Shown: in pieces, positions 16,585-50,774 of the stretch
Position numbering within the stretch: the first letter of the stretch is position 1
Layout of the letters: every line of letters begins with the position of its first letter
From: Plasmodiophora brassicae
Taxonomy: Eukaryota
Direction: 5' to 3'
Length of the DNA stretch: 64,000 bases
NCBI GenBank assembly: GCA_036867785.1
Contig: CP145417.1
Location: 496,001-560,000, forward strand
Position numbers and translations under genes: made by a program
The notes under the pieces: generated by a model
The model's input: the letters and a program-made list of their open reading frames with translations, nothing else
Databases searched by the model: none
Told to the model about the DNA's origin: nothing

Positions 16585-18638
16585 GGTTGGTCGGCGTAAA
16601 CAACATTGCTTGAGGTCTCTAACTATTAAAGGTATGAGAACGATAGACGATGACGCGGTTGCGGATATTCGACGATTGGCATGTACGCGAAGGGCTCAGA
16701 ATTCTAAACAGGCGTAGTTCCTCGCAGAATACCATTTCGCTGTTAGAACTCGACGGTACTCTCGCCTGACGACATGGTCATCGTGTGTGCGCCTTGACCA
16801 AACTTGTCGCGCGCTTCCTCGCGTCTCGGACGTCGCATTGACGCCGTTGACGGCCGCTGCGGTTGAGACGGTGCTGGGACCGCGTAACTGCTGGGTCCAG
16901 ACATCTGATCGAAATTCAAACTTCACATTCATGATCTGCGTCTGGTAGCAGGTAGGCATGGACGTACGCTCATGTCAAGCGACGCAGGTGAATAATATTG
17001 CAGAGATGGAGAGGGTACGTGCACAGCTATTGGCACTTGATAAGGGTTCGTGTACAGAGGCTGTGCAGTGGACACCGCTGGGTCGTGTCTCCAGCGCTTC
17101 AAGCAGCACGCTATGATTATCGCAAGGATCAGTCCTGCAGCACATCCTCCGAGCGCCACCATGGTGATCGACAACGGCAGCGACCAGCTCTCAGATCCGG
17201 ACGACACGCCTGCTCCCGTGCGGGCTGGGGCTGACGTGGGTCTCACATTGACCATCGTTCTTGCAGTGTTCGAAGCAGTCGCCAGTCTGGAAACGCTGGT
17301 ACTGATTGCGAAGTTGCCTGTCGACAGTGTGGATTTCCGGGACGATGTTTTACGTCGCCCAGCTTGATGTGATGCGGTAGATCTCCACAACGGATTTGTC
17401 TCCACGAGGCGCATGCTGGTCGTCGCAGTTCTCTTCCCACGACGAATTGTAACTGACGACATTTTCGCACTGGAGTATGCTGATCCTTTGCACTGGACAA
17501 CGACGGCGAGCCATTTGCGAACGCCAGGTGCCGGGTCCGGTGCGAACGTCGTGTCGTCGGCCGTTACGCTGCATGACGTTCTGTTTAAGCATAGCTGCCC
17601 AACGATGGCCAGGCTGGTATTTGCGTGCACGGGTCCAATCATGAACAGAGGGAAATCGCCCTGCGGTGTCCCGTACGATGCGAACAGGATGCGCGCGATC
17701 CTGGACCCGCCCACAGGGCACGATACGCTCAACGTGCCGTTCGTAGCGGGCGTCGATTCCGGAACAGTTGGCGAATTCGGCAACCATTCATAGGCGAACC
17801 CTCCGGCCAAGTTCGAGTCGGCCTGGTACGACGGCTGTCCGCTCCTGAACGACATGGACAGGGGCGCTGTCGCAGATTTGATCTGGTTCAGCTCTGCCGC
17901 GCCTAGCGCCCTGTCGTACAGCGTAACGTTATGCAGGACGGCCAGAGCGGTCTGGATTCGGAAGTCGGTGCTGAACACGGCAGACTGGTTTAGCGGAAGC
18001 GACTGCCCGTTCGTATTGCCAGGCAGTAGCATCAAGTTGGTGGTGGAGTTCGTGGCGTAGTACAGATTGAGCTGATGAGCGGGTTTCGACACCGTGTTGT
18101 CGATGACAATGGCGAGGAACATCCAGTGGCCGAATCCAGCGGCCTGGACCGAGGCGGGCGTGATGGCGCCGTAGTTCGAGCCCGCCCAGCCCGTGCTGAC
18201 GTGCAGCCGGTTAGGCAGGGCGAGGTACACGGCCGGCAGTCGCGAATCGTCGCTGGGCGTCGTCACTGTACGCACGGTGAACAGGCTCAGGTAGGGCCAC
18301 CCGCCCTGGTTCAGGAGTTGGTTCCACGGGTCCAGGTAGACCCACATTGTGAACGTGAACGTCAGCGAGGCCGGTGACTCGGCGTATGGCGGTGGACTCG
18401 GCGCGATGAACGCGCGCCAGATAGGAAATTTTTTGTTGTTCCGCGGGACGACACCAGGTTCTCGTTCCGCGGGACGAATCCCGCTTGTCGTCCCGCGAAA
18501 TTAATCCTACTATTAATCAATGAGCGCGGAGTTGCCTGTACTCCTGAACGTGCAGTCCGCCACGGCCCACCCAGCTGCGGACCGCGCCGTCCGCAAACAG
18601 TGTGCGTCGTTGAGCGACCTGGTGTCAGGGTGACAGCA

Positions 18639-21600
18639 ATGGCTAATGACGATGAGATCGTCCACTGGTTTCTGGCGAACCGCATCTCGGCTGAACAGCT
18701 AGCGAGTTACCTCAGCGTTCAAGGCTCGGACGTTGATGTTCCGGAGATCGATACTTGCGAAACAGGCGATCCAAAGGACATCGACGTACAACAAGACAGC
18801 GTGCACCCGCCAACAGTCGAAGATCCCATTTTCCATTCCGATGATGGTGAAATGGGGGACGACCCGGATTATTCCGATGGCGACGCCACCTGGGTTCCGG
18901 CACCAGCCATGGCCTTCGACAGTCATGTCGAGTTGAAACTTTTTCTGGAAACCTACGCCAGGAAAACTGCCTGTCATGTCAGTAACTCTTCCATTCCGTT
19001 GTTCGGCGTCGAATGAAATTTGCCCTTCGTCTCAGATCAACGTCCAGTTCAAAGCTTTTGCAACAAAGGAACGCTCCGTCAAATTGTTTGGCCACGACGG
19101 TGCGTGGGCGCGAGGTCGGTCCCTCGTTGTAGTCGATAACCGTATTGATAACCCTAACTATAACCCTCAGGCCACGCATACTGCAATTTTAAGGAGCCAG
19201 GCAAGAAAAAAGATCGAACCATTCGAACAACTTGCACGCTCAGAATTCCTTTCACGTACGACGTAAAGCAACGCAAGTACGTCGTGAAGGACGCCAACTT
19301 TTGTCTCGACCACAACCACCCAGTGGAACTTCCGTCGAGTAATGGCGTTCGTGTCACCCATCAACGTGACCTGACCAAGGAACAAGCGTCCGCAATTCTT
19401 GCGCTGGGCAAATATTCCCTTCCGTTCCCAATGGTATATCGTTTTACGTTTGATCTGCGCAACTGGTTTTAATGACTGGAGTTTAGGTTGTTAAGATGCT
19501 TGCTGATCAGTTTCCTGATGTCACATTTGGAAGACCTTTATTGCATCGAATGCTGAGAACGGGAAAGCTGCGGGCTTTCGGAGGCGACCCAAATGCTATG
19601 AATCTTCTGGCAAAATTGGGAGAACACTATCGAGAGGAAGGAGGGGTGTTTGAATTCGATATTGACATCGATTGTCGCCTACAGAAAATTTGGTTGGCTC
19701 GTCCTCAAGGACTGCAGTTCGCGGCAATGTATAATGATGTCGTACAACTCGATGGTGGTGCCAAGATGAATGCTTACGGTTTCACGTTTCTTCCTGCAAC
19801 AGTCATTGACTGTTTGGGTATGTTTTCTGTACCCTGGTTTTCACCTCACCGAATAATATGTCGATAGGGAAGTCTTATATTGTTGGGGCTATGGCTGGGC
19901 CGTCGGCTGAGAACAAAGATGATGTTGTCAAGACTCTTAAGGTGTTCGGGTTGTGCCGCCCCGGTAGTGTTCTCATAGCAGACGAAGCTCTAGCATTTGG
20001 CGCCGCTGCAACACACTGTGGTATGCTGTACCACCAGTGCACCAAGCACTACCAAGCGAAAATCGTCACAGCCAGCGCTGGTACGATTGTGACTGGGGTC
20101 GTTTTCGATAATCTCATCATTGAAATTAATAGGACTTGGCCATAACGCCAAGACATTCGTTGCGAACGCAAACGCGCTTGTATACCATATCTTTGAGTCG
20201 GAACATGCATTTCTGGCGAAATGCTTGGAATATCGCTCATCGTTTGACGTGTACCCCAGAGCGGTCGCAGTCATTGATGACATCATTGGGAAACGGCGGC
20301 GTCTCTGCCGCACATTTACATGTACCGTGTTCACAGGTGCGCATTCGTCAAACCAACGTGCTGAAGGAACGATTAGCCGGAGCAGACGCGGTGTCAGCGC
20401 CTACCTGGAACGCGCCAATCTATTCGAGATGTTCAAGCATTTAGAGCAAATCCAGACCCAGCAAGAGGACGAGGCGTCCAGAGTGCTGTCCAACCTCATA
20501 CGCAACAACCGGGACGTAAGCGACTACGTCGAATCGATATTACGAAGCAACCAACTGGATTCGCGACTTCTGAGTGCCGTCGGTGAGCTGGATTCAGGTG
20601 GGCCTGTGACACTGCTGTTCTGGTGATATCTCACGCTTTTCTCAGGGGAGTATACGGTCGGGACCCAGGAACATCCTGAAAAACACGTTGTCACGTTGGA
20701 TGATTCGGTGTTCGGGGGTATTCCGTCGTGTACATGTACTGATTTCAGGTGCAATCTGGTGTTTCTACGTGGGGTTGCTTTTCTAATTTACCAGCGCTAG
20801 GTCCACCCTAATTCCGTGTAGCGGGATATGCGCTGTCTTCAGCCGCCTTGAGGACGACGTCTTCAGTGTATGCAACATCCATCGTCGGTGGTGGCTTCGG
20901 TTGCACCCGTTGTATGACAGCATCAGGAGAAATCTTCGGATCCCGGACGCACATCCAGTTGCTCGTGGTGCAACAGGACCGTTGTGCGCCGGTACCCGTA
21001 CTGGTATCCCCTCAGACGACAAGTCAGGCGAGCCATCCGTTTCATTTCACGATGATGACATCTACCACAAAATCGTATATCCTTCAAGGCCGAACATCCG
21101 GTATCGGATCCTGTCGGAAGCGTTTGCGCGTTTGGCTCTTGACGCTAAGTTGAACGAGCATTTGTACCGGCGTGCCATGTCGACGTTCACTTCGCTCCAA
21201 ACGGAATTTCAAATGTACCTTTCTGGTGCCCATCGTGGCCCTGAACCTAAGGTTGAGCGCTCTGTCGTCCTGCCACCGCTACGACGCGCAGCGAATCGCG
21301 GCAGGCGTCCCGATTCTGTGTCGCGCCTTTCCCGTCTTGATCGGCAACAACCTCCGAATGCAAGGCAACCAGCCAGGTGCCGTTTGTGTATGCAACATGG
21401 CGTTACCTCAACGGATCACCGCAGTGGCAAACGATGTCCATTCTTCAGCTCGAGCAATCAACCCAGCGTTTCTCGAGATTGTCGTCGAGGTATTTCGCGG
21501 CCTGTCTAATGTGGCGTTGTCCTCATTGAAATTGTTTCTGTTACAGAAGGTCCAGCTCGCGATCCCGATGGCATAGTGCCCGACGAGTGCGATTCCTTGG

Positions 21601-24600
21601 GGAACGACGAATACTTCGAACATGATCTGCTTGCTGAGGAGCCGTTTGACGACGATGATGACGTCTTCGAAGTGTTGGGCGAGGCACACCAAGTCGCCGA
21701 AGTTGGGTATCCCGAAGGTGTAGATGGAAACGCCGAACTTAACGAAGGCGATCTCTGTCGCGGTGCTTCTGCTCGTGAGTGCGGTTTACGTACACTCCTG
21801 ACTTGCGGCTCACTTCGTTGTCAGGTTTGTCGAACGCTTCAGAGCAAGTTCCGACTCCCATCGATCAATCGTTCGCAGGTGATAACGCATACGTCGTACA
21901 TACTAATGCTTCCAAAGTCCAACTGAATCCTGGTGGCTGGTGCAGATAGCGGAACCATTGCGACCTCGTCTTCATCGGTGAATCGGGTGTGGGCAACGAT
22001 TCAGGATCCGAAGTCATCGTTTGACCAAAGCCTGGACGCTATCCGATCGTTGTCTTACGTCGACCTGAGCAACCGTCTTCAACCGAAAGGGGTGGTGGCG
22101 AACGTGAACGCGCTGGACGATGCTCCGTTCTTGATGCCACGAGTGATTGTTGAGAAGTGTCTTTCAACTGAATATTCGTTTCCATGCGTTAAAATCACTG
22201 GCATAGGTGTTGTCACCAGGCAAGGCGATTGTATCCATGCAGTGCGTGTGTCTGACTGTAATGCTTCTAGGAAGCTGGTACAAACCATGCAAAGCGTTTT
22301 AGGGTACAAGGAAGATATTGTGGACCGCATGGACAAGGTATACAAGTGGTTGGGGGATGAGAAACAGTTCGTCATTGCGAATTATATGTTCGAGCCCCAA
22401 AACGTCGCTGAGATGCGGGAGGCCGTTACAGCAGACCTCTTCAACAAACCGTTCGGCGCAGATATTCGCCCGCATGTAAAGTCCAGGCACTTGTTCGCGC
22501 ATCTGGCTTGCGATGAGTGGTTATCGGATGAAGTCATGAATGGCGCCGTCGATCAATTCCTGGGGGAACAACTGGAAGCAAGAGCAGATACGCCAGGGTT
22601 TGTGCAACAGTTCGAATCTATCTGTTCGCTCTACCTATCTGTCCAAGCCGAAAGCGTTTCCGAACGTTTTGAGCAGGGCCGCCTCTACGAGAGCAGCATC
22701 CTTTTCCCTGTCAATGTCAGTAACCAATCTTGTACATGCCAACAGTCGGCACTGATATTTGTCTGTGGCAGATTGACAATGCTCACTGGTGTGGTATCGT
22801 CGCTGACCGTCCGAAACAGACTGTGTACCTCTACGACCCCATGATGCGGGACTCGTATCGTGCACAGCTGCTCCAGTTGTGGACCAAATTCGTCGTTCCA
22901 CGAATTCCTGATGGAAACGAGTTCACGATTGTGTTGGTGAAACCGTTCCCAAAGACGTACCCAACTGTTCATCCAGAGTACCAGTACTCAGATGATGCTG
23001 CTCAGATGCTGCTGCCACCCGGTCACATGATCATGACCGTACTCGACCCCGCAGCGGCCCTTGCTGTGACGATCCTGTCCAAATACATCAGTTCGTTATA
23101 TCACCAGGCGCCGACTCTTGCGACCGACCGCCCCCGTAGTGGGCAGCGGCGGCGTTAGCACAGAAGCTTCTTGCGCAAAGAGCCCCAAGCAAACGAACTC
23201 ACTTAATGGCAGGAGGTGGCCGCAGAGCGCCCGTTCGTCTACAGATGGAGGACGACGCCAGGACCAACTCCGACGCCGAGGCCAAGGAGCATGAATCGTC
23301 GACAGATGACGAAATCGATCGAGGGCTTCAGTCAACAAACCTGCACGGTAAGAGCCCGATCTTTATGCCTTTGAAACCGCCCATCCTACGTACCCTGAGC
23401 CTTACGGCCAAGGACGGAATTAACGATTTCCTCAAGAAATATAGGAAACACGTCGAGATCGTTAACGAGCGCCGACTGATCTACAAGGAGGATATTCATC
23501 CGCCAACGGTGAAGTCATGCATTACCGAGGACGTCCTCAGAGGGATGTCGAAATATCGCCTACGTCAACCCGCCAGCACGATCACGGATGGCGACATCAT
23601 GAGCTACTTGAGGTCAGTCCAACGCAGGGAGGCTGATGTCGAGAGTTCGACAGACATCAAGGCGCTTCTCACGAAGACAGTGGTCATGAACCTGTCAATC
23701 AAGAGTATTGAGGAACGTGTCACGTCTTTCTTCGCCAAGTTCGATGAGCTAATCGACGACTATGGGCTACAAGACACATACGCCAAAGGAACGAAAGGAA
23801 CCAAGCGCAAGATCAAGGTATTACGCGGAGGTATCCGTCCCACTGACCTTGCGGTTCTAGTCGAACGCGCGATCGAGTTCGGAGGGTGCAGGGACGCTGA
23901 GAAGGACGAGCTCAAATTCTTCGACCTCGTCGACCGTCTTGCCAAAGAGCAGGACAAACACTTCCGGCTGCAAGCTGAGAAGAAGAAGTCTCCAGCGCAG
24001 ACCATGTCCCCACCTGCAGGTAAGAAAGGTAAGGACGTTGTTGCTCCGAATAGGAATGGCGGCAAGCATCCGACAAATCCGATCGGACTGAAGACAGCTC
24101 AATCGTCCACATCGCAAACGAAAGACGAATCGAGGGACATCCCCGAGCACATCCGAAAACGTTTCGAAGGTAAGGATCCTCCAAAGGCAGGTTGCCTAAT
24201 CTGCAAGGAGCAGCACTGGGTCCAAGTGTGCCCGAAGGCAACTCAAGGAGAACGCAAAGCTGCCATTGAAAAGTTCCAGAAAGAGCGCAAAGAGAAGGAG
24301 GAGAGTAAGGGCAACGCAGACACGGCAAAGCGCATGGGCCCGCCGTCGCCGTCAACACCGTCCCCTATGAGACTTCGCTTCCAGAACTCGCTCGACCTTC
24401 CATTCGAAGCCGATAGTGGTGCGACGAAGACCGTCATTTCGCAATCGCAACTGCTACGGATTCAAGCCATCCAGCATGTCCCAGTCAAAGTGTTCGACCA
24501 TCCAACGGAGGCGAAACTTGCAACGATCGGGGCTACGACAACAATTGTCGCCACAGCGATCGTGGACATCACCATTGTCCCACCTTCGCATGGCAAACCT

Positions 24601-27600
24601 GCACATCTACGCGGGCGGGAAATCAACGTATGTCGCGAAGACCTATCTGATGACATTGTCCTTTTAGGAGCCCCGGAACTGGACGCGTTGGGTATCAATC
24701 CAGCTACACAACTGAAGGAGATGTTAATCGAGGCAAATGGTCCTATCATCATCGAAGCGGATCCGACCCCGGAACGTCACGCCCCAGGTGGTCAAGGGAT
24801 CACGATGAGAGCGGTAAGACACCCGGAGGTAAGTGGAACAACTCGCGATCATGAGCCCCAATTGGACACCAATGATCCGGGTGACGACTATGATGTCGAA
24901 ATCGGAGAACACTCCGATACAGACGTGGACAGGGCAATAGACCGGATGATACAACGTGCAACTGACTCCGGTTTCCCTAACGATCAAGTCCCGCGTCTAC
25001 GCACAACTGTCAATCGACACAAAGACATATGGCGAACGAAGCTTGGCCGTGATCCACCTGCGAAAGTAAGTCCACTGAAACTACACTTCAAAGCAGATGC
25101 TCGTCCTGTTCGTTGCCGAACACGAAGGTATACCCTCGAACATCAAAAATTCATGGATGATCACGTAGGAACCTTGGCGGAAAACGATTTTGTGTACCGC
25201 AATCCGCACAGCAGGTACGCGTCGCCGTGTCTGGTCGTCGACAAGAAGGACACGGAGGTTCGCGGCCATCGGCTGACCGTCGACATCAATGAAGCCGTCA
25301 ACAAACAGACCGAACGCATTGCATGGCCGATGCCTCACATCGACATCATCCTGACCTACCTACGTTCCGCGACCATCTTCATGCTGTTCGATGCCTTTAA
25401 AGGCTATTGGCAATTTCCGTTGCACCCTGATTCGCAGGAGGCCTGCTCGTTCATGACGCACATCGCCACGTTTACACCCAGGCGCATCATCCAGGGAATC
25501 GCTGATTGCGTGTTTGCGTTCCAGGCGGGAATGCAACAGGTGTTGGGGAAACTTCTATATATCTGCGCCCTACTCTGGATCGACGATATCCTCGGCTACG
25601 TATCTGGATTCGGAGCCTACATGGACACACTCGAATCTCTTCTCAACGCTTTCGACGAGTTTGGAGTTAAACTCAACCCTGATCGCTGCCAGTTATATCT
25701 CACTTCAGTGACATGGTGCGGTCGCGTTATATCCGCTGATGGAGTGTCGTTCGATCGCTCGTATCTCAACGCCTTGCACGATCTATCAACTCCTATCACG
25801 GCTGCTGATCTCCAACAGTTCCTCTCGGGCCTCAATTGGGTCCGTTCTGTTATCCCTCAATTCGCGGCACATGTTCATCCGCTACAGGATCTACTTCTGT
25901 CCGCTTCTCGTTCTGTCAGCAGTCTGAAGAAATCACACCTACGTCGAGTTCGTTTAGCCGACATCGGCTGGACCACTGACCATCTCACCAGTTTCAATTC
26001 TCTGAAGCATCGTCTATCGGAGGCCATGACGCTGGCGCACCCCAAGGACGAATGGATCATGTGTCTCTTTCCGGATGCGAGTGACCGTTTCTGGTCTGTT
26101 TTCCTGTCGCAGATCCCTCCGGAAGATATTGATCTCCCGTACGGTGAGCAACACCACGAACCTTTGTCGTTCATCTCGGGGACATTCCGTGGTTCTCAAT
26201 TGAAGTGGGCGACCATTGAGAAGGAGGCCTACGCCATCATTGAAGGCTGCTATCGCCTCAGACACTTCATCTCTATGTCAAAGCTGGCACTTCGAATCTT
26301 CACAGACCACCGTAATTTGGTTTTCATTCTGAACCCAGCCTCGGTTGCACGAATTAGTCGGACGACCGGCGATCGCTTGGAGCGCTGGCGACTTCAGATT
26401 ATCGACCTAGATTTTCACATTGAGCACATTGCTGGGGAGGACAACGTTTGGGCCGACCTCGCCACGCGGTGGGGCGTCGCCCTGCAACCACTCTCCTCAT
26501 TTTCCCCTCCATCGTTCCGTTCTATTCGTCATATGGCAATTAATCTTGACTTCGACGATTACAAGATGACCGATGAGTTTATCTGGCCGTCTGTCGACGA
26601 GATTAGTAACGCTCAGACCGACTACATTCGCCAACACGACCTATCTGCCGTTTCCGATATTCTCCAACTCGAAGGGGACATGTCTCTCCACCTTAGCCCG
26701 GAATCTGGCTGGCGTACTCCAGACAATCAACTCTGGGTACCATCACATGCACTGCAGCTACGCATCGCAGTGATTTCACATATGGGACTGTCTGGTCATC
26801 AACCTGCTGCATCGACTATTTCGAGCATCGCACAACTCTTCTGGTGGCCTGATCTGGATTCCTTTGTTCGTGCATTTGTGGACAAATGCTTACACTGCCT
26901 ACGCAACAAAGATTCGATGATTCCCCGACCTTTTGGCACGGCTATGCATGCGGACAAGCCCAATAAGGTCATCCACTATGACTTTCTGTTCTTATCCAAA
27001 CCTCGTCCAGGCGATTCTCATCAACTTCGTTATGTTCTGGTTCTGAAGGACGACGCCACGGCATTCGTCGAGTTAATTCCTTGTCAATTCGCGGATCACA
27101 GCGTTGTCGCCGAATCTCTTCTGGATTGGTTCAAACGTTTCGGCATTGTTTTCCAACATGTCTCTGACCGCGGCACACACTTCAAAAACGCGGTTATCGC
27201 CGAGCTTAATAGCCGGTTACACTGCAACCATCATTTCACAACTGCCTACACACCTTGGGCGAACGGCACGGTTGAGGTTGTCAACAAGCGGCTTCTCTTT
27301 CTGCTGAAGTCCCTCCTCTCCGAGCTAAATCTTCCATTCCAGGATTGGCCGTATGTCCTTCCGCTGATCAACATGACGGTAAATCACACTGTTCGATCAA
27401 GTGTGGGCTACGCGCCTGTCACGATGTTTACGGGTTTGCCACCCTCGACACCTATCTCGATTATCTTCAACAAACGCATCGACGCGGTTATCGACGTACC
27501 GTTGACCCCTGACCGTCTCAAGGAAATGACGACGGAACTTATCGATTCTCTCGAGGACATGCACAAAGCAGTGGCACGTACACGCACCCATCTACGTGAT

Positions 27601-28520
27601 CTCAAGCAACGCGCCCGGCGTCGCCGACGCAATGTTCGCGAGATCAACTTCACGACGGGCGACTATGTTCTCGTGGCCAACCATGGCAAGCACTCCAAGT
27701 CCGAGTACAACTGGACTGGACCTGCCCAGATTATCGACACCATCAACGACTGGGTGTATCGAGTTCGAGATCTCTTGACTGATCGTATCTCAGATGTACA
27801 CGCCCAGCGCTTAATGTTCTATGCAGATGCGCACTTGAATGTCACCTCTTCCCTGAAGCACAACATCGCGCTCACCGGCGTGGCTTACCAAGTCAACGCA
27901 GTCGAGGACATTCGAGTCAACTCTACGTCAGGTGACACTGAACTACTGATCAACTGGATCGGATTCGATGCCACCGACAATTCATGGGAACCTTACTCGG
28001 TCATGGCGGCCGATGTTCCTGATATCGTCAGGGCCTTCCTCGAACGACAAGCCGAAGGAGACCCGCTCTGCTCACGACTGTTAGCAGATTTCTAACACGG
28101 GGAGTGTTCATCCAGAGTACCAGTACTCAGATGATGCTGCTCAGATGCTGCTGCCACCCGGTCACATGATCATGACCGTACTCGACCCCGCAGCGGCCCT
28201 TGCTGTGACGATCCTGTCCAAATACATCAGTTCGTTATATCACCAGGCGCCGACTCTTGCGACCGACCGCCCCCGTAGTGGGCAGCGGCGGCGTTAGCAC
28301 ACCAACAGAGACGTCGCGCGCGAGCCTGGGGATGTTCGCTGACAGGCAACGTGACGGCCATAACTGCGGCGTCTATGTGTTGCATTATTTTCATTCTATG
28401 ATCCACCACAGCGTTTGTAGAGTCGACCCAGAGAACATGCCACTCATTCGTTTGTGGTACCTTCACAAACTATTGGGTCACGAGTTATATTTCCTTTCAG
28501 GAACGTTGCGGAAGATCTAA
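18639..28520 (+). CDS. MULE transposase (FAR1-type Zn ribbon, DDE, SWIM, Zn knuckle) spliced to a Ulp1/C48 peptidase
   Basis: C..HNHP, QLDGGAKMN, IADEA..CTKH, SNQRAEG, CTC..IPC, CRLC..H..C. Introns 21490-21546, 21775-21824 and ~21879-21945 keep frame into WLSDEVMN, FPVN|IDNAHW, YDP, PKT|QRDGHNCG. Confidence 0.75.
22966..28301 (+). mobile_element. Ty3/Gypsy chromodomain LTR retrotransposon 1, intact
   Basis: 197-bp LTRs 22966-23162 and 28105-28301 (TG..CA, identical by eye); 5-bp TSD CCAAC at 22961-22965 and 28302-28306; short purine tract ggggag before the 3' LTR. Confidence 0.95.
23206..28095 (+). CDS. Gag-Pol polyprotein (gag, CCHC, protease, RT, RNase H, integrase, chromodomain)
   Basis: 1629 aa single ORF: CLICKEQHWVQVC, DSGA, FDAFKGYWQ, LWIDD, DAS..EKE..TDH..D, HHCC, D..SDRG..NGTVE, W.GF..NSWEP. 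Confidence 0.95.
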   Translation: MAGGGRRAPVRLQMEDDARTNSDAEAKEHESSTDDEIDRGLQSTNLHGKSPIFMPLKPPILRTLSLTAKDGINDFLKKYRKHVEIVNERRLIYKEDIHPPTVKSCITEDVLRGMSKYRLRQPASTITDGDIMSYLRSVQRREADVESSTDIKALLTKTVVMNLSIKSIEERVTSFFAKFDELIDDYGLQDTYAKGTKGTKRKIKVLRGGIRPTDLAVLVERAIEFGGCRDAEKDELKFFDLVDRLAKEQDKHFRLQAEKKKSPAQTMSPPAGKKGKDVVAPNRNGGKHPTNPIGLKTAQSSTSQTKDESRDIPEHIRKRFEGKDPPKAGCLICKEQHWVQVCPKATQGERKAAIEKFQKERKEKEESKGNADTAKRMGPPSPSTPSPMRLRFQNSLDLPFEADSGATKTVISQSQLLRIQAIQHVPVKVFDHPTEAKLATIGATTTIVATAIVDITIVPPSHGKPAHLRGREINVCREDLSDDIVLLGAPELDALGINPATQLKEMLIEANGPIIIEADPTPERHAPGGQGITMRAVRHPEVSGTTRDHEPQLDTNDPGDDYDVEIGEHSDTDVDRAIDRMIQRATDSGFPNDQVPRLRTTVNRHKDIWRTKLGRDPPAKVSPLKLHFKADARPVRCRTRRYTLEHQKFMDDHVGTLAENDFVYRNPHSRYASPCLVVDKKDTEVRGHRLTVDINEAVNKQTERIAWPMPHIDIILTYLRSATIFMLFDAFKGYWQFPLHPDSQEACSFMTHIATFTPRRIIQGIADCVFAFQAGMQQVLGKLLYICALLWIDDILGYVSGFGAYMDTLESLLNAFDEFGVKLNPDRCQLYLTSVTWCGRVISADGVSFDRSYLNALHDLSTPITAADLQQFLSGLNWVRSVIPQFAAHVHPLQDLLLSASRSVSSLKKSHLRRVRLADIGWTTDHLTSFNSLKHRLSEAMTLAHPKDEWIMCLFPDASDRFWSVFLSQIPPEDIDLPYGEQHHEPLSFISGTFRGSQLKWATIEKEAYAIIEGCYRLRHFISMSKLALRIFTDHRNLVFILNPASVARISRTTGDRLERWRLQIIDLDFHIEHIAGEDNVWADLATRWGVALQPLSSFSPPSFRSIRHMAINLDFDDYKMTDEFIWPSVDEISNAQTDYIRQHDLSAVSDILQLEGDMSLHLSPESGWRTPDNQLWVPSHALQLRIAVISHMGLSGHQPAASTISSIAQLFWWPDLDSFVRAFVDKCLHCLRNKDSMIPRPFGTAMHADKPNKVIHYDFLFLSKPRPGDSHQLRYVLVLKDDATAFVELIPCQFADHSVVAESLLDWFKRFGIVFQHVSDRGTHFKNAVIAELNSRLHCNHHFTTAYTPWANGTVEVVNKRLLFLLKSLLSELNLPFQDWPYVLPLINMTVNHTVRSSVGYAPVTMFTGLPPSTPISIIFNKRIDAVIDVPLTPDRLKEMTTELIDSLEDMHKAVARTRTHLRDLKQRARRRRRNVREINFTTGDYVLVANHGKHSKSEYNWTGPAQIIDTINDWVYRVRDLLTDRISDVHAQRLMFYADAHLNVTSSLKHNIALTGVAYQVNAVEDIRVNSTSGDTELLINWIGFDATDNSWEPYSVMAADVPDIVRAFLERQAEGDPLCSRLLADF

Positions 28521-29952
28521 TACAACCTGGTTCTCTTCTCCACCAATAATGCAATATATGGGATCGCGTTGTGGTATAGAACAGCATCGTGAGGTGACTT
28601 GATGCACGAACTCCGGTTTCCGTGCGCGGTCAACGTCGGTCCAGCGCCCGCGCCTGACCGGTGACGAATGCTGACGAACGTAGGAAGAGACGACCGTGAC
28701 CCGAAAATCGAGCACCCTAAGCGTGATCGGCGGGATACAATCCGACGACCTTAACGCGCATTTGCCGCACACACCGTTCATAGCCATAGAGCAGCAACGT
28801 GAGGCGATCTGTGATGCACGGACACGGCTGGAGGCAAATCCGTGCTCATTGATTAATAGTAGGATTAATTGCGCGGGACGACAAGCGGGATTCGTCCCGC
28901 GGAACGAGAACCTGGTGTCGTCCCGCGGAACGCAAAAAGACGTCCCGCGCCAGATTCGGGTCCGACTTGCAACCGTCCACTGGGAGGCGTCCGCAGGCAC
29001 TAACAACAACGATAGCATGGCCATCGACGCAAACATGCATAGAAGCCGCATAATAAGTGTACCGGTTGGGATCGTCACTACGTGTGTGTACACGAGTGTG
29101 AGGTTGACCCATCACATTTTCTTCCAGGAGCAGTGTATCGTTGACTGTCGTTGCTCGGGGCGTGGCATAGCTAGTACAGGTTGACTTCGTGGTCGGCTGC
29201 GTTGTCAACGGCAAACGAAGTCTCGACAGTGCTTCACCCGGAAATCATATCGGACATCCCGCATCCTCTTGTCGGATCATGGCGACCGAGCCGTCACGCC
29301 CCGGGCGCTCCCGACACCAAAGCAGTGATCTCTTATACTAAAACGGTAAAGCGTGTGCCCATACAAATCCTACGTGTCAGCGGGTGGGCAAACATCTACC
29401 TATTCTGGGTGACAAACCATGCATGCCATAATGACAAACATTTGCCATGGTAAAGGTGTGTGAAGAACTACCTGACAACGCTGGTGCACGACAGTGTGCG
29501 ATGGCTACCGATCACTCGGTGTATCGGATAGACATGAGAATGCTGACTGAGGACCAGGGCGTGGCTAGTGAAGGCCTTGATCTCGTAACGTGGCTTGGTG
29601 CCGGAAGGTGGCCCGGTGCCGGAAGGTGAGTGTCGTGAGTCATGGTGGTGGAGATGACTCATGACAGCCTGAACCGATTGCGTCACAGTCCATCACACTG
29701 CAAGCGGTTCGCACGCTCAACAGATCACCCATGGCCCATGGGCGTTGATGACGGACCTGCCGAAGACTACGTTGGATGTATGGTCGAACGATGTACTCAT
29801 TGTCAGGCGCGAAAGTTTCCAATGAGAGTATCACTTGCTGTGGCCGTTACCGGCACATCACTTTGCCACCGTTGCCGACATTCCTGACGACCTACAGCAA
29901 TTATTCGTACGACACAACCTGACTTCCTATAACCGTGAGCTTGCGTTGCTAT

Positions 29953-32900
29953 TGTGACGTCCCAACGGTGATGGTATATCAGCCGTGTAGTATAATCGTC
30001 TGTGTCCCCGACCTGCAGCTCCCACGGACGCCGTGCGGACTCCGTGCGCACTCCGTGCATGTCCGTCATTCTTAGGGCGGCCTAGCCGGATCACAGCTAT
30101 TCTTGTCTTATAGCTTGGAGCCGGCACATTCCCCTCCTTCAAAGAAATGCTCCTCCTTGCAGGTGTCTTCAGTGGTGGTGTATCCTAATCATGTCTTCTC
30201 CTTAATATAGTCTAATTAACATAATTAAGTCTCAATCTTCGTAGAACACAGTTTTGGCTTCTGTCGTCACATGGCCGTCGGCATTAAAATAACCCAGCGC
30301 GCATCCGGGAAAAAAGCATGACTAGCCTACTGGACTCCTTCCGCCTTAAGTAACTCCTTAACCTCATCAGCAAGGTGATGTTTCTCCTTCCTCATCCTGG
30401 CGGCATGGGCCTTCACCAGCTTCGGTACATCCATCGCCAACCTGCAGATTGGCTCCCATGAATCCTCCGCTTCAGAGAAACCCTTCCATCCGATCAACAA
30501 TTCCAATTCCCCTGTCTCCGGACTGTGCCTGCAGTCCTTGAAGACTTCAATGGCGAAACGCTCATTGTCATAATCCATCTGTCGCTTCAGTTCCTCAGTG
30601 GCATTCACTTTGCCATGTTCATAGAGGCGAACGCGGTCCCCGTGAACGGTTCGAGTGTCCGTCTCATTGAACATATTCCTCACCTCGTAGGTGCAGTTCT
30701 CGTGGCTATCAGTTATTTGATATAGGCCCCGCCACTTCATAAAGAGCTTCTTGCCCGGAACCTTACCCGGTTCAGGCAATCCGATGAGTACATAGTCACC
30801 GATCTGAAAGTTCGGTGCAGTTGCTCGTCGGTACGCGTCGCTCCTCTTCCTGTGTACGGCTCGGATTTTCTTCGATTGCTGCACTGCTCCCTTGTGCATT
30901 TCATTCAGCGACGTCTGCAATTGCATGACTAGCTCCTGAATATGCTCCTTTGAGAGTGTAGCTTCCCCATACTTCTCATCCCCTGGCCTCTTGAACACTT
31001 GCTTCAGCGGGTTGTCTGGTGGACGTCCCATCATCACTGTCACTGGCGCATTCCCGTTGGTACGCGCCTGCGACCTGTGATTGATCGTGTGTTCAATGTT
31101 GTGGTTCAACCATGGCCAATCGTATTTGTCCCACTGCAATTCAGACAGAAGTGCTCTGACTAGTTGCAAGTAGTTCCTGTTGATCACCTCAATTGATCCA
31201 TTACTGTAATGCCCATAGGCAACAGTCGGGTGATGAGCAAATCCACATCGACGCGCCAGTTCCTTCACAACGTTTGCCAGAAAGCAAGACGCCATGTCTG
31301 ACACCATCAACTCAAACGTTCCGAAGATAGCCCTCCATTCGAGCAGTGCCTCTACAGTGGTTTCCGCATTGGGTGTATGGTCAGGAGTAATCTTGACCAT
31401 GCCAGACAGATCATCCCTGATTATCAGGTTCCATTGCAGATCATGTCTTCCGCCCTTCTGAGCCGCCATCATGTATAGCCAATCCAAGTGAATCACCTGA
31501 TTCGGCCTAACACCATGAACAGCTGTTCCCAATGGCCTGGGAATCCTAACCCCGCCCCTTGTCGGTAGACAGTTCAAACACGCGTTGCAGAACGTCCTCA
31601 TGTCCTCATCGCAGTGTGCCCAATGGCAGAACTCCCCCAACTTCCTCAACGAGGCCTTCAGTCCTAGATGCCCACTGTTTCCGCCCGCATGAGCAATAGC
31701 GCATAGCTGCAGCTTCAGCTCGTTGCATTCGTCTGGTATGATCACCTGTCCCTTCCCTGTGACGAAGAGATCATCACCATTCTTCGGTCGTTTCGTTCCT
31801 CTGAGCCATTTCCTCTGAGCCTTACGGATTTCGTCCACGGTCGGCCATTGGAATTCCTTCCTTTGTAACGGCCGTACCCGATATCCGTCCTCAATTTGAA
31901 GCGTTATCCTCCTGATCGTGCGTACCTCTAGGTGCTGGTCATCAGGCCCACCGTCCGGTGCACCCCACCGCGTCATAAGATCCGACCACACATTGTCCTC
32001 CCCCGCAATGTGTTCAATGACGTAGTTGACCCTCTGTATGTCCAGTGCCCATCGTTGCAGTTTCTGCGCCGTTGGCTTTGACACGTCCGTTGGTGAGAAT
32101 ATCCTCACGAGATTCCTATGATCGGTAAACAAACGAAACTGCTCGTTGGTTGTAACGAGATAGTCCAGTTTGTCAATCCCATCCTTGATCGCGAACCCTT
32201 CCTTCTCCACCGTGGACCAGTTCCGCTCTGGGCCCGCGAACTTGTGTCCGACGAAACCCAGCGGTTCATGTCGCTGCCCATGCACTGGTTTACCCAAGTC
32301 CTCAGGCGGAATCTGTGTGACTACCGCCGCGCTGTTAACCTCATTTGCATCTGAGAATAGGCATTGGATCCGGTCCTTTCGCGGGTACGCTAGTTGGACC
32401 GTGTCCGCCACTGCCATCTTCAGTTTCTCGAATGCCAGCGCATGTTCGGGTGACCATCCATATTTGCACAATCGCACCCTCCTGGCAATGGCTTTCGTCC
32501 TGCCAGGTTGGTCCTTCATTGCATCCTCGTATATCCTCTGTAACAGGTGTACCTTCCTGTTGTACTCAGGGATGGACCTACTCATCCACTGAGTTGCCAT
32601 AAGGAATTGTTGCAAGTCCCTTGCCGTTCTCGGCTGTGGTATCGCCATTAAAGCCTCAATCCTAGCAGGATCGTGCCTTACCCCTTCTGGCGTGAATATC
32701 CTTCCACAGAACCGAACCTCTGTTGTGAAGAGCTCACACTTCTCCACGTTGAACTTGATGCTGTGCCGTTCGGCTAGCATCAGAGTCCGTTCCAACGTTC
32801 GGAACCAATCATCCTCCCTTTGGGCATGCCCCATTAGATCATCGATCCATATGATTAGTTTGTGGAACATAAGTTCCCCGAACACCTCAAACATCCTCCC

Positions 32901-35217
32901 TTGATACTGAGGGGCGGAGTTCATTCCCCCCTGCATCGACCTCGTTGGCTTATACACCCCCTTATCTGTCATGAAGGAGAAGATCTCCTGACACGCTTCA
33001 TCCAGCGGCATCATCCAGAAGCCTTTGAACGCGTCTAGCTTAAACCAGAACCTCGAGCCTGCCAGGTTCCTCAGTATCGCCTCCTGATGTGGCATAGGCC
33101 ACGCCACGGCGACACATTTGGCATTAACAGCTCTGAGATCAACACAGAACCGCTTTCCGCCCCCTGGCTTCGTCACCACCACCACCGGTGAAGCCCACTT
33201 CGCGTTGTAGTTTTCAACGACTAGGCCATACTTCTTCAATTGGGCGACGAATTCCTCCATGAAAGCACTGTCCTCCATACTGTACTTTCTGGCTCGGCAC
33301 CTGTAAGGTTCCGCATCCGGTTTCAGCTCCGTGACAAATGGTGTAACCCTGGCTGGACCATCAGGTCCAATGCTCATACGCCAAACGTCCCTATATCTTC
33401 TGACGAGTTTCCGAAGCGATTTCCCCATCGCTTGCGGTAGGCCATTCCTCAATGCGCGCTCGACCATCCCGTCCATCTCCCTTTCCAGGGAGTCTGTGGA
33501 ATCGGTTCCGATCCTCACATCCTCTGTTTCCTCTTCCTCCCCTTCCCAGAGAGGTGGCATCTCGTTTGCCATATTGTGCACTTCATCCATGACGTCATTC
33601 CCCTTCTTCGGCGTGCTCTTAATGAGTACGTCCAGGGCCTTCTTTGGGTGGATACCCAAGTCGTCCAACAGCCTCTCCCCTAGGATTATTTCCTTTTCAG
33701 GAATGTCCCATACAAGGCATCGGCGCCGGCGAGTGATCAGTTCGCCTGCCGTCGTCGTCAGTCCCAGATCCAGTATCATCACATGGTAGGCTGTGTGCTT
33801 CGTTTCTCGGTCTACCAGACAGAACGTTTCCGGCTTCTGGAGGTTCTCCATTGTTAACAATGGGTCCCGCTCCATTAGCTCGCGCGCTATGGTCAATGGC
33901 ATCAGAACGTCAACCGATGTCGCTCCACTGTCCAGAACCCCAACGTAGTCTTCCTCATGTCCGTTTACACGAACGACTACTTGGTCCCCTGTCCTCTGCG
34001 CCCCCTCCGACACTCTTCCTACCACTGGAAGCCATGGGTACTCTGACAAGTCGTCATCTTTATCAGATTTGGCCTTACGGGGTCCATCCCTTCCCGTTGG
34101 CCCCTTGCGGCGATCCTTCAGCAGGTCTGCGACCTGCTTCTTGGTAGGCTTCTTCGGGCAACGAAACGCTGGATGTCCAACCTCGTCACAGTTGAAACAT
34201 CGCAGGTCCTTCCGGTGTCGTTTCGTGTCCCGGCCTCCATCGCCTCCTTCATCCGTCTGCGCCCCTCGCTTCTTTGGGGTGGGTTTGACCTTTCCCTTCC
34301 CCTTGCCATCCTCACGTCCCGGCTCCATGTACAACATCGTCTCCTCATACGATGCAGCCCGTTCCTTCAGCACCCGATAGAATTCCAAAGGGTCCTTCTG
34401 GAGATCGGTCTGGCGCTTCATGACGAGGGTCCGCATGAGCGCTTGTAAACCGGATGGGCGCACAGCACCCAGTAGGTACTTGACCAGGTTCTTCCGTCCC
34501 TCGCGGGACGTGAAGAGGTCCTGCCACCCGTTGCGCGCGACCAATTCCTCGTACTGCTGCACGAGGTTCACGACCCTTGCCGCTGGTGTGGTGATGGTCA
34601 GCTTCATCGCCAGCTTCCGCATCTCCCGGTCGATGTTCGCGTCCGTCGAGCGATCCTGCTCCAGATGCCTCTTCATCCAGTCCATCAGGTCGCTCTCCGT
34701 CACCCCCTCGGCGTCCTTGCCGAGTTCCCACTTGCAGATCGCCCTGAGCAGACCGGGGTCGATCATACTCCTCACTGACCGCGGGATCTGGCCCTTGGCG
34801 TTCGGATCGTCCCGGAAGTGATTCCGATACGTCTTCAGCTCGGCCATGAACGTCGTGACGGCCTTGCGGTCCATGCTTTTCAAGGTCGGCGCCTTGTTCA
34901 TCTGCAGGACGATCGTTGAGCCTTGCACGCTCTGTCCTTGTTGTCGATCATCGACGTCATCTTCCAGCAGCATCTCCTGCGCGGTGGCCACCATCGCGTC
35001 CTTCTTTGAAACCTTCCCCGAAAGGATGTTCAAGAGATCTCTGTGACGTCCCAACGGTGATGGTATATCAGCCGTGTAGTATAATCGTCTGTGTCCCCGA
35101 CCTGCAGCTCCCACGGACGCCGTGCGGACTCCGTGCGCACTCCGTGCATGTCCGTCATTCTTAGGGCGGCCTAGCCGGATCACAGCTATTCTTGTCTTAT
35201 AGCTTGGAGCCGGCACA
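29953..35217 (-). mobile_element. Ty3/Gypsy chromodomain LTR retrotransposon 2, intact
   Basis: 176-bp LTRs 29953-30128 and 35042-35217 (identical by eye); 4-bp TSD CTAT at 29949-29952 and 35218-35221; PPT gaaggaggggaa at 30140-30129. Confidence 0.95.
30327..34994 (-). CDS. Gag-Pol polyprotein with chromodomain
   Basis: Likely ATG 34994. CFNCDEVGHPAFRC, LDSGA, LDAFKGFW, IWIDD, RNase H, HHCC integrase D..SD..NGSIE, WKGF..DSWEP. Confidence 0.93.
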   Translation of the reverse strand: MVATAQEMLLEDDVDDRQQGQSVQGSTIVLQMNKAPTLKSMDRKAVTTFMAELKTYRNHFRDDPNAKGQIPRSVRSMIDPGLLRAICKWELGKDAEGVTESDLMDWMKRHLEQDRSTDANIDREMRKLAMKLTITTPAARVVNLVQQYEELVARNGWQDLFTSREGRKNLVKYLLGAVRPSGLQALMRTLVMKRQTDLQKDPLEFYRVLKERAASYEETMLYMEPGREDGKGKGKVKPTPKKRGAQTDEGGDGGRDTKRHRKDLRCFNCDEVGHPAFRCPKKPTKKQVADLLKDRRKGPTGRDGPRKAKSDKDDDLSEYPWLPVVGRVSEGAQRTGDQVVVRVNGHEEDYVGVLDSGATSVDVLMPLTIARELMERDPLLTMENLQKPETFCLVDRETKHTAYHVMILDLGLTTTAGELITRRRRCLVWDIPEKEIILGERLLDDLGIHPKKALDVLIKSTPKKGNDVMDEVHNMANEMPPLWEGEEEETEDVRIGTDSTDSLEREMDGMVERALRNGLPQAMGKSLRKLVRRYRDVWRMSIGPDGPARVTPFVTELKPDAEPYRCRARKYSMEDSAFMEEFVAQLKKYGLVVENYNAKWASPVVVVTKPGGGKRFCVDLRAVNAKCVAVAWPMPHQEAILRNLAGSRFWFKLDAFKGFWMMPLDEACQEIFSFMTDKGVYKPTRSMQGGMNSAPQYQGRMFEVFGELMFHKLIIWIDDLMGHAQREDDWFRTLERTLMLAERHSIKFNVEKCELFTTEVRFCGRIFTPEGVRHDPARIEALMAIPQPRTARDLQQFLMATQWMSRSIPEYNRKVHLLQRIYEDAMKDQPGRTKAIARRVRLCKYGWSPEHALAFEKLKMAVADTVQLAYPRKDRIQCLFSDANEVNSAAVVTQIPPEDLGKPVHGQRHEPLGFVGHKFAGPERNWSTVEKEGFAIKDGIDKLDYLVTTNEQFRLFTDHRNLVRIFSPTDVSKPTAQKLQRWALDIQRVNYVIEHIAGEDNVWSDLMTRWGAPDGGPDDQHLEVRTIRRITLQIEDGYRVRPLQRKEFQWPTVDEIRKAQRKWLRGTKRPKNGDDLFVTGKGQVIIPDECNELKLQLCAIAHAGGNSGHLGLKASLRKLGEFCHWAHCDEDMRTFCNACLNCLPTRGGVRIPRPLGTAVHGVRPNQVIHLDWLYMMAAQKGGRHDLQWNLIIRDDLSGMVKITPDHTPNAETTVEALLEWRAIFGTFELMVSDMASCFLANVVKELARRCGFAHHPTVAYGHYSNGSIEVINRNYLQLVRALLSELQWDKYDWPWLNHNIEHTINHRSQARTNGNAPVTVMMGRPPDNPLKQVFKRPGDEKYGEATLSKEHIQELVMQLQTSLNEMHKGAVQQSKKIRAVHRKRSDAYRRATAPNFQIGDYVLIGLPEPGKVPGKKLFMKWRGLYQITDSHENCTYEVRNMFNETDTRTVHGDRVRLYEHGKVNATEELKRQMDYDNERFAIEVFKDCRHSPETGELELLIGWKGFSEAEDSWEPICRLAMDVPKLVKAHAARMRKEKHHLADEVKELLKAEGVQ

Positions 35218-35221
35218 CTAT

Positions 35222-35690
35222 GTCGTGACCATTCCGTCCAAATTCCCGTGCCAGGCCGCCCAGCTGTCTCAACTGCTGCAGTCCGTACGTTGAAGCAAAC
35301 ATGTCGCTCCCTGATAACCATTTCAAGCATTTCGACCAGGGGTCTGATTCCTGGTACAGCGGTCAAGTTACAACCTGGTCGAAATGCTTGAAATGGTTAT
35401 CAGGGAGCGACATGTTTGCTTCAACGGACTGCAGCAGTTGAGACATGTACAGCTGGGCGGCCTGGCACGGGAATTTGGACGGAATGGTCACGCCATAGCA
35501 GCGCCAGCTCACGGTTATAGGAAGTCAGGTTGCGTCGTACGAATAATTGCTGTAGGTCGTCAGGAATGTCGGCAACGGTTCGACCCCTGGTCGAAATGCT
35601 TGAAATGGTTGTCAAGGAGCGACATCCCTTTTATCATGTTTGCTTCAACGGACTGCAGCAGTTGAGACAGCTGGGCGGCCTGGCACGGGA
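35222..35690. repeat. Foldback inverted duplication inside the Helitron remnant
   Basis: 29869-29952 plus 35222-35340 is inverted at 35374-35578 around a ~33 nt loop; a third copy of one segment lies at 35582-35690. Confidence 0.85.
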
Positions 35691-37329
35691 TGTTGCCCTG
35701 GAGTTCAGTTCGAACGCCGGCGTTGTACGCAGGTTTCGCAGGGGCGTACGTACAATGGGGCCAGCAGTACCAGCGAGGCCGCAATGGTAATACCGATCAT
35801 GGACATCGGCCAACGCTATGCGCATGTTATCCAGCTTCGACAGTCTGATCTGCCGGCATCATCGCATGACCGGCATCTCCGTATACCGGACTGGTTCAGA
35901 CCCCATCATCTCCGTATACTGGACTGGACAGACCCCTTTTTGGACCCATGGCAGGTTCTTCCCGCTGCTCCACTGGCCGCGTACGCGGCCCGCGCCGTCA
36001 TAACCATGGACTGAGGCGTTCACTATCTGTCCATGCTGTACAGGTCAGCTGTGGATGCTGCTGTTGCCCCCCCCCCCCCCCCCCTGAGCCAATCCATTAA
36101 CGAAAATCGAGCTGAGATTAAGAGATGATATCCATTCGGCACAAGTGCAATATGCATTTCTATAATAAACGCTTAATTGTTAGGTTAAATGCATCAGGAC
36201 ACTGTTGCGACCTTGAGTTCGCAGTCCGTGGCGGAGTTCGTAGCTGACTGACCTATCTGGCTTTGCGGACATTCCGGACATTCTCACGGTGTTGCCGTGG
36301 CAGTTCACGGACTACTAAATTCATTCTGTTATTGTCCTGCCATTGTCCACGTGTCCCTGTTTCAATTTGCATGGTGCATATGTGACGAATGGATATCATT
36401 TCTTAATTTTCTATACCATATGATTGTGACGAATGAACATATTTTCGGAATATCGATGGCGACGCCCCTCGCCACCTAAAAACTGGATCCCCTCGCCCCC
36501 TGTAATTACCCTGTTCCTGCCGTTAGAGCACGACTTGAACATACGTCACTCTGCTGCCGCACGAACCGGACGAGTTACACACGCATTCCCGCAGTCTAGA
36601 CTGACTGTACCTCACATCCGCGAATGGAAAGTCACGCTCGCATTCTAATAGGTTCATGTGGGCTGGTGTGTCAGCAATACCAAGGTGCGGGAATACAGTT
36701 GGATTGTCATCCCGGACGACGATACATGGTTGTTGTCGTGCCAGTCCCCCGGCCTCCCATGTGTGCCTTTGTATCATATGTACAGCATAGCAGCACCTAT
36801 GATGTTGTTCACGGTCATCACCCCCTGTCATGGCACGGCCGCCGAGACCGCCGATCACTTGCCGGACATGCGCAGTTCCCGTCAGACCAGTCGTGTGCTT
36901 CCAAGAATAGACCGCGGACTTCCGGAGCCCGTCGCGGACTCCGGAGACACAGTGGAGGGCGTGAGGCCAGACGGCCCGAAATAAAGAAGACTGACAATAG
37001 TCACCAGAGAGAGACAGTTGACGTCATAGACTGAGAGGCTATCAGCAGACAGCCAGAGAGCTCAGTTAGCTTCTCACCGGGAACGTCTCGAAGCTTGAAG
37101 GACGTCACAGCCTTCGACAACGTTCGGCGTTTCGGCACCACTGGCATCACGACACGTCGGTTGCATAGGCCTGTGCCAGAACGGCCAGCACAGCGGTTTA
37201 TGGATCGTCGAAAACCACACTGCTTATCGCAGGCAGGTCAACCGGTGCTGCCGGAAATCACTACAAACGTCGGAGGCGGTGGGTGCGGGAAAGCAGTACT
37301 GCAGATGGTAAACATCGGGGATGAGATAA

Positions 37330-48628: not shown

Positions 48629-48897
48629 ATAACACACACATGTTTGCTACAGCTTCATTCGAAGGGTGACTCATGGTAGGGGCCCCGGCCCCCTACTCGG
48701 TCAGCTAGCTATAAGTTCGGTGCTATGGTGCATGGAGAGCCGTCGTCGACGATGACACACCTCGTGGCATCATTCCTGCCGGACCAAAGAAAGGGGGGCC
48801 CGCTGCTGTCCTAGGGTACGTAGGCGTTTGCATCCAATGGCAACTCAATAAAATCCTACGCGTTCGTAATCCCTCATTGGTGTATCGCTGCCCGCTG

Positions 48898-50685: not shown

Positions 50686-50774
50686 AACCGTGTGCGTGTG
50701 TATGTGTACCGGTTGCGATCGTCGTGGTTAACGGCGGGCACCGGTCTGCTGGACGCGTGCGCGTGTCGCCCGAC

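Follow-up and report, generated by a model that had tools for sequence, protein, structure and literature searches.

The start of reverse transcription is the defining step of every long terminal repeat (LTR) retroelement, and to our knowledge only two solutions to the priming problem have been established experimentally: a host tRNA, and the fold-back of the 5' end of the transcript in Tf1. The reverse transcriptase (RT) of Tf1 cuts its own RNA–RNA duplex, and the Tf1 primer stays on the cDNA. The precedent for RNA self-priming is provided by the Tf1/sushi group (PMC10085805). In the fungal GalEa Copia elements a 'Conserved Hairpin Site' located directly after the 5' LTR was described in 2017 (BMC Genomics 18:410, PMC5445492). 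According to that paper, the site is palindromic over 10 bp once the terminal LTR A is counted with it, (A)CTGATCAGT or (A)CTAATTAGT; no complement was found in the LTR, and the authors proposed that the palindrome replaces the primer-binding site (PBS), no described model fitting their elements (PMC5445492). Among the literature searched, the term is otherwise used only in a paper on bivalve terminal-repeat retrotransposons in miniature (TRIM), which cites GalEa (PMC6934838). Here we describe a site of this general kind in two Ty3/gypsy elements, Gypsy 1 (+ strand) and Gypsy 2 (− strand), the two intact LTR retrotransposons of a stretch of 64 kb of Plasmodiophora brassicae DNA (assembly GCA_036867785.1, contig CP145417.1, positions 496,001 to 560,000 of the forward strand). 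This whole stretch is called the window, and coordinates refer to it unless a locus is named; the elements are also denoted E1 (Gypsy 1) and E2 (Gypsy 2), and metagenome loci bear L-numbers. The reading that we favour, with about as much doubt as confidence, is that the junction palindrome is the PBS equivalent of a large, tRNA-independent, chromovirus-like Ty3/gypsy clade and acts by self-complementarity.

The junction palindrome in the window and among relatives

The 5' LTR of Gypsy 1 ends ..GCACA and is followed by GAAGCTTCTTGCGC. The perfect 10-bp palindrome AGAAGCTTCT occupies positions 23162–23171 of the + strand, its first base being the last base of the LTR, which ends at 23162. On its own strand Gypsy 2 reads ..GTCACA followed by GAGATCTCTTGAAC, and its palindrome AGAGATCTCT (35033–35042, − strand, with base 1 at 35042 as the last LTR base) lies in the same register as that of Gypsy 1. 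Compared with each other, the palindromes differ by two symmetric compensating pairs, at positions 4/7 and 5/6. A preliminary description of this DNA had already claimed that the Gypsy 1 palindrome takes in the last LTR base, that there is no TGG-initiated site, and that Gypsy 2, with an unrelated LTR, has another palindrome at the same position; all of this was confirmed, and direct reading of the first 20 nt beyond each LTR revealed no TGG. Perfect 10-bp palindromes number 92 in the 64 kb of the window (about 1.4 per kb), so that the presence of one at a single fixed position is approximately a 1-in-1000 event.

Both window palindromes are directly followed by T-G. In Gypsy 1, C23161 is able to pair with G23173 over a 1-nt bulge; a closing pair of the form C-palindrome-N-G (23161–23173 and 35031–35043 in the window) was counted by eye at 13 of 27 distinct junction sites, which is commoner than the 25% expected for a G, yet not universal.

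A metagenome scan with a two-protein alignment and gag-derived patterns had found no relative, and a scan with a 30-protein alignment yielded 80 loci, 12 of them with terminal repeats. The best tblastn segments of the palindrome-bearing relatives show 24–36% identity to the Gypsy 1 polyprotein. Conservation of a palindrome in relatives, which the preliminary description had proposed to examine, turned out favourably: palindromes are carried at the LTR/leader junction by 31 elements (the two of the window and 29 of the 80 loci), which possess 20 different perfect palindromes of 10–20 bp, for example AAAGAATTCTTT, AGTGAATTCACT, AGTGACGTCACT, AATATCGATATT, ATCGCGCGAT, AATAATTAATTATT, ACAATAATTTAAATTATTGT and GCAGTGCGGCCGCACTGC. 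The LTR end was considered to be fixed independently when both LTR copies are followed by different sequence, and in all six elements of this kind (E1, E2, L016, L033, L035 and L079) the palindrome, of 10–12 bp, starts at the last base of the LTR or no more than 1 nt away. Three junctions with the LTR end fixed by the two copies read ..GTCACA (L035), ..GATCACA (L079) and ..CTACA (L016), each followed by ATAACGTTATT. In L033, ..CTCACA is followed by ATATTAATAT, and the repeat extends by one A more, which may be the last LTR base. The other junctions were located upstream of intact gag-pol open reading frames (ORFs), upstream of a gag located by homology, or, by a third route, from a polypurine tract plus TG up to the next gag; three further loci (L002, L036 and L045) have a candidate palindrome that is offset or lacks the CA anchor, and in the remaining 48, mostly short contigs, the junction was not located. 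No clear TGG site beside a defined LTR end was seen in any locus, the 48 loci without a located junction not having been searched systematically.

In most carriers the first base of the palindrome is the A of the terminal CA, and in three palindromes (five elements) the symmetry extends to ACA or GCA. Three elements have T instead of C before the terminal A, as C-T-A in L009 and L014 and as T-A in L063, and their LTRs apparently end in TA (L009:4139-4166, L014:6985-7012, L063:3260-3287). The palindrome of L009 and L014 grows to 14 bp because the T is matched by an A beyond the core. The symmetry may here override the canonical CA end. The last 8–12 bases of the LTR often follow the pattern CG-N(2-4)-(C/T)ACA, as in GACGTCACA, GACGCTACA and GTACGATCACA. 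Such ends of the unique 5' region (U5) were noted in E1, E2, L016, L035, L053, L060, L073 and L079, and they may represent the end recognised by the integrase. In L032 the region 3' of pol (L032:3740-3960) contains tandem repeats of about 90 nt (TCCTGTCACTGAACTG...CAGTCATACAGG) in place of a recognisable LTR end.

The frequency of the palindromes was also assessed by an automatic test that was blind to them, in which the leaders of ORFs of at least 1000 amino acids having an ATG and at least 60 nt upstream were scored for a CA-anchored palindrome of at least 10 bp within 300 nt upstream of the ATG. Such a palindrome was present in 12 of 19 leaders. The leaders contained 13 anchored palindromes in 4,977 nt where 1.36 were expected (Poisson P = 2.5e-9), one of the 13 being an unrelated palindrome within the Gypsy 1 LTR; the background elsewhere was 87 anchored palindromes in 318,547 nt, or 0.27 per kb. 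Perfect palindromes of at least 10 bp, anchored or not, number 387 in 312,222 nt of the loci (1.24 per kb). Six of the seven leaders missed by the test are accounted for by the ORF definition: the open frame of E2 extends into its LTR, and in L026, L030, L033, L035 and L073 the gag frame is separate or broken, with the palindrome present at the true junction. The seventh miss is L032. When the sites are centred on the dyad, 135 of 135 inner pairs are Watson–Crick and each position has three or four pair types, a count that is circular and has no value as a test since the sites were selected as perfect palindromes.

Because the symmetry is kept while the sequence changes, the site appears to serve nucleic-acid pairing and not to be a site for a tRNA or a protein. 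By default, LTR elements are primed from a host tRNA, from a fragment of one or from some other small RNA, and certain Copia elements, such as FunCo1, make use of internal tRNA regions (PMC5445492); the symmetry would then be incidental. A primer of this type would, however, be expected to keep the sequence constant, as it does in the metazoan GalEa elements (PMC5445492), while at this one position we find 20 sequences with only symmetry in common, and no TGG stands beside the LTRs of E1 and E2. We consider this explanation hardly credible. ARAGORN detected no tRNA genes in the window and none in 50 loci.

The palindrome might also act as a signal at the DNA level, being bound by a dimeric protein (integrase, Gag or a host factor) or forming a cruciform where the LTR ends. 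Perfect palindromes devoid of G-U pairs are typical of DNA sites, and many of ours hold restriction-type hexamers. The lack of G-U pairs is nevertheless partly due to our choice of perfect palindromes; a protein site would conserve its sequence and not the symmetry alone, and the length here ranges from 10 to 20 bp and the composition from all-AT to GC-rich. A DNA-level role is therefore judged highly improbable.

Candidate pairing partners and a possible priming mechanism

Second strand transfer in the reverse transcription of LTR elements requires identity directly after U5, and it is for this reason that a palindrome placed exactly there may be taken for the PBS equivalent. If the site acts by pairing, the partner has to be sought in the LTR, in the leader downstream or in the palindrome itself.

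The LTR was searched over about 200 nt upstream of the junction. For Gypsy 1 the best pairing energy was −13.4 kcal/mol against −13.6 ± 2.2 kcal/mol for shuffled sequences, in agreement with the preliminary description, which had reported no convincing LTR complement in this element; for Gypsy 2 the values were −10.0 against −12.2 ± 2.4 kcal/mol, again with no excess. For the 22 elements in which 120 nt or more of upstream sequence were available, perfect complements were at most 4–9 nt long, as in the controls (mean z +0.43). The elements do resemble the Tf1/sushi group in being Ty3/gypsy elements with a weak chromodomain match and no apparent tRNA site, and the first bases of the transcript, which belong to the LTR, might fold back on the site in the classic manner. 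The complementarity that defines this mode is, however, missing within the roughly 200 nt searched in 22 of 22 elements and in E1 and E2 relative to shuffles, and the classic Tf1 mode is therefore put aside as very unlikely.

No general complement was found downstream either (mean z +0.18, Wilcoxon p = 0.41, 21 testable elements; 7 of 28 elements had been dropped for having too few controls). A good downstream complement is present only in E2, where 1 of 45 controls was equal, and in L076 (2 of 75). A GCAGGAG(G/A) stretch near the gag start of each window element is complementary, over about 8 bp including G-U, to the right palindrome half together with the TG (23167–23174 with 23209–23216 in Gypsy 1, 35029–35036 with about 34975–34983 on the minus strand in Gypsy 2). 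This pairing is regarded as unproven because a downstream partner is not general among the relatives.

These data bear on the possibility that initiation depends on a cis hairpin with a downstream copy of the site, comparable to the CHSeq2 of GalEa, for example through snap-back priming after a cut. The GalEa site, with its final LTR A and a partner 12–41 bp downstream (PMC5445492), makes such a structure conceivable, as do the complements in E2 and L076 and the fact that our 20-bp palindromes fold as 8-bp hairpins. Among the palindromes alone, only those of 12–20 bp fold as a hairpin, and a 10-nt palindrome gives just a 3-bp hairpin. Moreover, in L013, L016, L018 and L060 the gag ATG lies only 8–12 nt after the palindrome. 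Given this and the lack of a general complement, a cis hairpin appears to be quite an unlikely explanation.

Since no other general partner was found, the palindrome itself is left as the likeliest partner. The predicted homodimers range from −6.0 to −20.2 kcal/mol, with −14.5 kcal/mol for the Gypsy 1 palindrome and −15.6 kcal/mol for that of Gypsy 2. Self-pairing is compatible with a role in dimerisation or packaging only, the minus-strand primer being something else. Self-complementary leader sequences are established dimerisation initiation sites of retroviruses, that of human immunodeficiency virus type 1 (HIV-1) being of the same kind, the homodimers predicted here are stable, and covariation would suit any pairing function. 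The site of mouse mammary tumour virus (MMTV) consists of an apical loop that is self-complementary (PMC8096270). Single-sequence folds of our junctions revealed no consistent stem-loop enclosing the palindrome, and no PBS separate from it was seen. On the other hand, our site coincides with the end of U5, the very place at which a PBS is needed for second-strand transfer, and the four closely spaced ATGs, the absence of any conserved or tRNA-like sequence 3' of the palindrome among the junctions compared and the lack of TGG at the window LTRs leave little place for a separate primer site. In addition, palindromes inside the PBS of MMTV are dispensable for dimerisation, so that the PBS position alone is no sign of a dimerisation role (PMC8096270). 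We consider dimerisation or packaging alone to be unlikely, though worth keeping in mind.

The position of the site, the conservation of a palindrome with changing sequence, the missing alternative partners and the mobility of Gypsy 1 described below are observed. The preliminary description had suggested that two genomic RNAs pair through the palindrome and are cleaved to yield the primer, an idea that our data support in part. The mechanism that we propose on this basis for a self-pairing primer site is the following. Two co-packaged genomic RNAs would pair with each other through their junction sequences; the longest palindromes might instead snap back on themselves. The element's RT/RNase H would nick one of the paired strands where the duplex ends on the 3' side, much as the Tf1 RT acts on its own RNA–RNA duplex, and the new 3' OH would be extended into U5 and R (the terminal repeat of the RNA), yielding the minus-strand strong-stop DNA. 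The plus-strand strong-stop DNA would then copy the retained palindromic primer and, the site being self-complementary, copying would remake the same site for the second strand transfer. Each cycle would in this way rewrite the site symmetrically, a change in one half being copied to the other half. Such symmetric rewriting would explain why the site is always perfect, varies between lineages and has the terminal A (or CA) within its symmetry.

Several points weigh against the self-pairing primer site. All steps of the mechanism, from dimer formation and cutting to priming and rewriting, are inferred. A symmetric duplex offers no obvious way to cut one RNA only, although the second transfer would require that at least one template stay uncut. 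Self-complementarity in the leader might have no function beyond dimerisation or packaging. The duplexes predicted for two AT-only 10-mers are weak (−6.0 and −6.4 kcal/mol), and in L002, L036 and L045 the candidate palindrome is offset or lacks the CA anchor. Finally, many metagenome junctions were found by using the palindrome, which makes the 31 of 31 carriers and the pair counts circular; the figures independent of the palindrome are only the 6 of 6 and the 12 of 19 given above. We would nevertheless suggest, still more tentatively than for the clade itself, that palindrome priming by means of an RNA dimer, an RNase H nick and symmetric rewriting may be a general, host-independent mechanism that arose, or was kept, both in this broad protist Ty3/gypsy clade, with its active Plasmodiophora elements, and in the fungal GalEa Copia elements.

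Structure, mobility and surroundings of the window elements

Gypsy 1 is flanked by the 5-bp target-site duplication CCAAC, read from the sequence, at 22961–22965 and, after the 3' LTR, at 28302–28306. Its 5' LTR (22966–23162, 197 nt, TGT...ACA, repeat family D8) is 100% identical to the 3' LTR of the same family at 28105–28301. The single gag-pol ORF of 1629 amino acids (23206–28095, + strand) begins with an ATG 34 nt 3' of the palindrome and contains RT, RNase H, the zinc and core domains of the integrase and a weak chromodomain. A short purine-rich stretch, CACGGGGAG (28096–28104), abuts the 3' LTR and is the putative polypurine tract on account of this position. Gypsy 2 lies in the minus strand, with the 3' LTR at 29953–30128, the polypurine tract GAAGGAGGGGAA (minus-strand reading) at 30129–30140, a single gag-pol ORF at 30327–34994 having its first ATG at 34994, and the 176-nt 5' LTR at 35042–35217. 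Its LTRs, of repeat family D10, are likewise 100% identical, and the target duplication is of 4 bp (CTAT, 29949–29952 and 35218–35221).

The two polyproteins share 30% identity (486/1623), and the LTRs are unrelated. Pfam matches in protein P0001 follow the order RVT_1, RT_RNaseH, Integrase_H2C2, rve, and those in P0002 the same order with rve below threshold. Both elements are Ty3/gypsy by their TG...CA LTR ends, target duplications of 4–5 bp and RT – RNase H – integrase order. The Pfam Chromo domain matches the C-terminus of both proteins with 23.5 and 20.1 bits, which is under the curated cut-off of 25.1; PF00385 is precomputed on many relatives. In the database, Gypsy 1 is matched best by a protein that NCBI assigns to Plasmodiophora brassicae, identical (100%) over the searched region; other named relatives are from oomycetes, and the majority of relatives are metagenomic.

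Both window elements (at 25564–25575 in Gypsy 1 and at the homologous position in Gypsy 2) and many relatives have W-I-D-D as the RT active-site motif where Y-x-D-D is usual, the W being conserved at 90% or more in the 30-protein alignment. A link between this motif and the palindrome was considered and rejected: the motif pattern caught 11 of the 31 palindrome elements and missed the other 20, and the 11 comprised six with W, four with Y and one with F.

The mobility of Gypsy 1 can be followed in contigs of four runs aligned to positions 21500–36500, all of them interrupted about 30 nt into the LTRs. These contigs have skips of 50–67 nt bounded by GT..AG in the gene next to Gypsy 1 and for this reason appear to come from spliced RNA. 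In contigs of three of the four runs (X7, X1 and X5) position 22960 is joined to 28302, with 5 letters fitting both sides, which represents the empty site; a contig of X13 reads from the gene into the 5' LTR of Gypsy 1. Internal sequence of Gypsy 1 occurs in all four runs, and its LTR ends are found with several other flanks. These observations show Gypsy 1 to be a recent insertion in a gene, polymorphic among the samples sequenced, and to have copies elsewhere. The identical LTRs, the empty site in three runs and the several flanks indicate that an element with a palindrome site moved recently and, the insertion being polymorphic, the palindrome design is probably functional.

The gene interrupted by Gypsy 1 lies at 21774–22960 and 28302–28846, and its ORF at 21933–22844 has no Pfam match. 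A repeated gene family is also present in the window, with one copy at 16738–18475 and three tandem copies at 48893–54482 spaced by about 1.9 kb. The proteins of this family have a SUEL-type lectin domain, and a concanavalin-A-like domain match was obtained in two of the three copies scanned.

Relation to known priming and dimerisation systems

The wide occurrence of the site and the recent mobility of one member turn the priming of these elements into a concrete question, one that can be addressed experimentally with a given RNA and its enzyme. Annotation pipelines that demand a tRNA-complementary PBS will score such intact and probably active elements as PBS-less. If the self-rewriting proposed above is true, the site would be a clear example in nature of evolution that is concerted and symmetric because a replication mechanism drives it.

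The preliminary description had called the arrangement possibly undescribed. For Ty3/gypsy elements and for Plasmodiophora, the literature searched, subscription-only papers lying outside it, contained no description of a palindromic site in the PBS position. The label is too strong and has to be softened in view of the GalEa Copia elements, since a palindrome with the final LTR A was already published for them in 2017 (PMC5445492).

Like a canonical tRNA PBS, the site follows the 5' LTR immediately and precedes gag; it differs from such a PBS in having no TGG at E1 and E2 and in a sequence that varies among relatives. It is similar to retroviral dimerisation sites as a short, perfectly self-complementary sequence of the 5' leader that can join two genomic RNAs, as the loop of stem-loop 4 (SL4) does in MMTV (PMC8096270). 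The retroviral sites are loop palindromes of 6 nt lying apart from the tRNA PBS, whereas ours are of 10–20 nt, extend over the U5 end and occupy the place of the PBS.

With the Tf1/sushi group, whose members are chromodomain-bearing Ty3/gypsy elements (PMC10085805), the elements have in common the Ty3/gypsy organisation, to which a weak chromodomain match may be added, the single ORF and a PBS, here presumably tRNA-independent as well, after the CA of the 5' LTR. In the 'pretzel' structure of that group, an RNA–RNA duplex of about 11 bp acts as the primer-template (PMC10085805). The partner of the Tf1 PBS is the 5' end of its own mRNA inside the LTR, with two flanking duplexes in addition, and the Tf1 PBS is not known to be palindromic; the present site, by contrast, is its own complement and has none in the LTR.

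The closest resemblance is to the GalEa elements, which agree with the window elements in the apparent lack of a tRNA PBS, in the post-LTR palindrome that includes the final LTR A and in the lack of an LTR complement. GalEa belongs to the Copia superfamily, whereas the present elements are Ty3/gypsy by their RT – RNase H – integrase order. Two dominant sequences account for 85% of the GalEa families, against 20 palindromes of 10–20 bp here. The GalEa site requires CHSeq2, located 12–41 bp downstream, with which it forms a hairpin having an A/A mismatch, whereas a general partner is lacking in our elements. The GalEa hosts are Pezizomycotina, and the hosts of the present elements are Plasmodiophora and unknown environmental eukaryotes. 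A third design, noted once as a curiosity in fungal Copia elements, appears here as the rule in a deep and widespread Ty3/gypsy clade.

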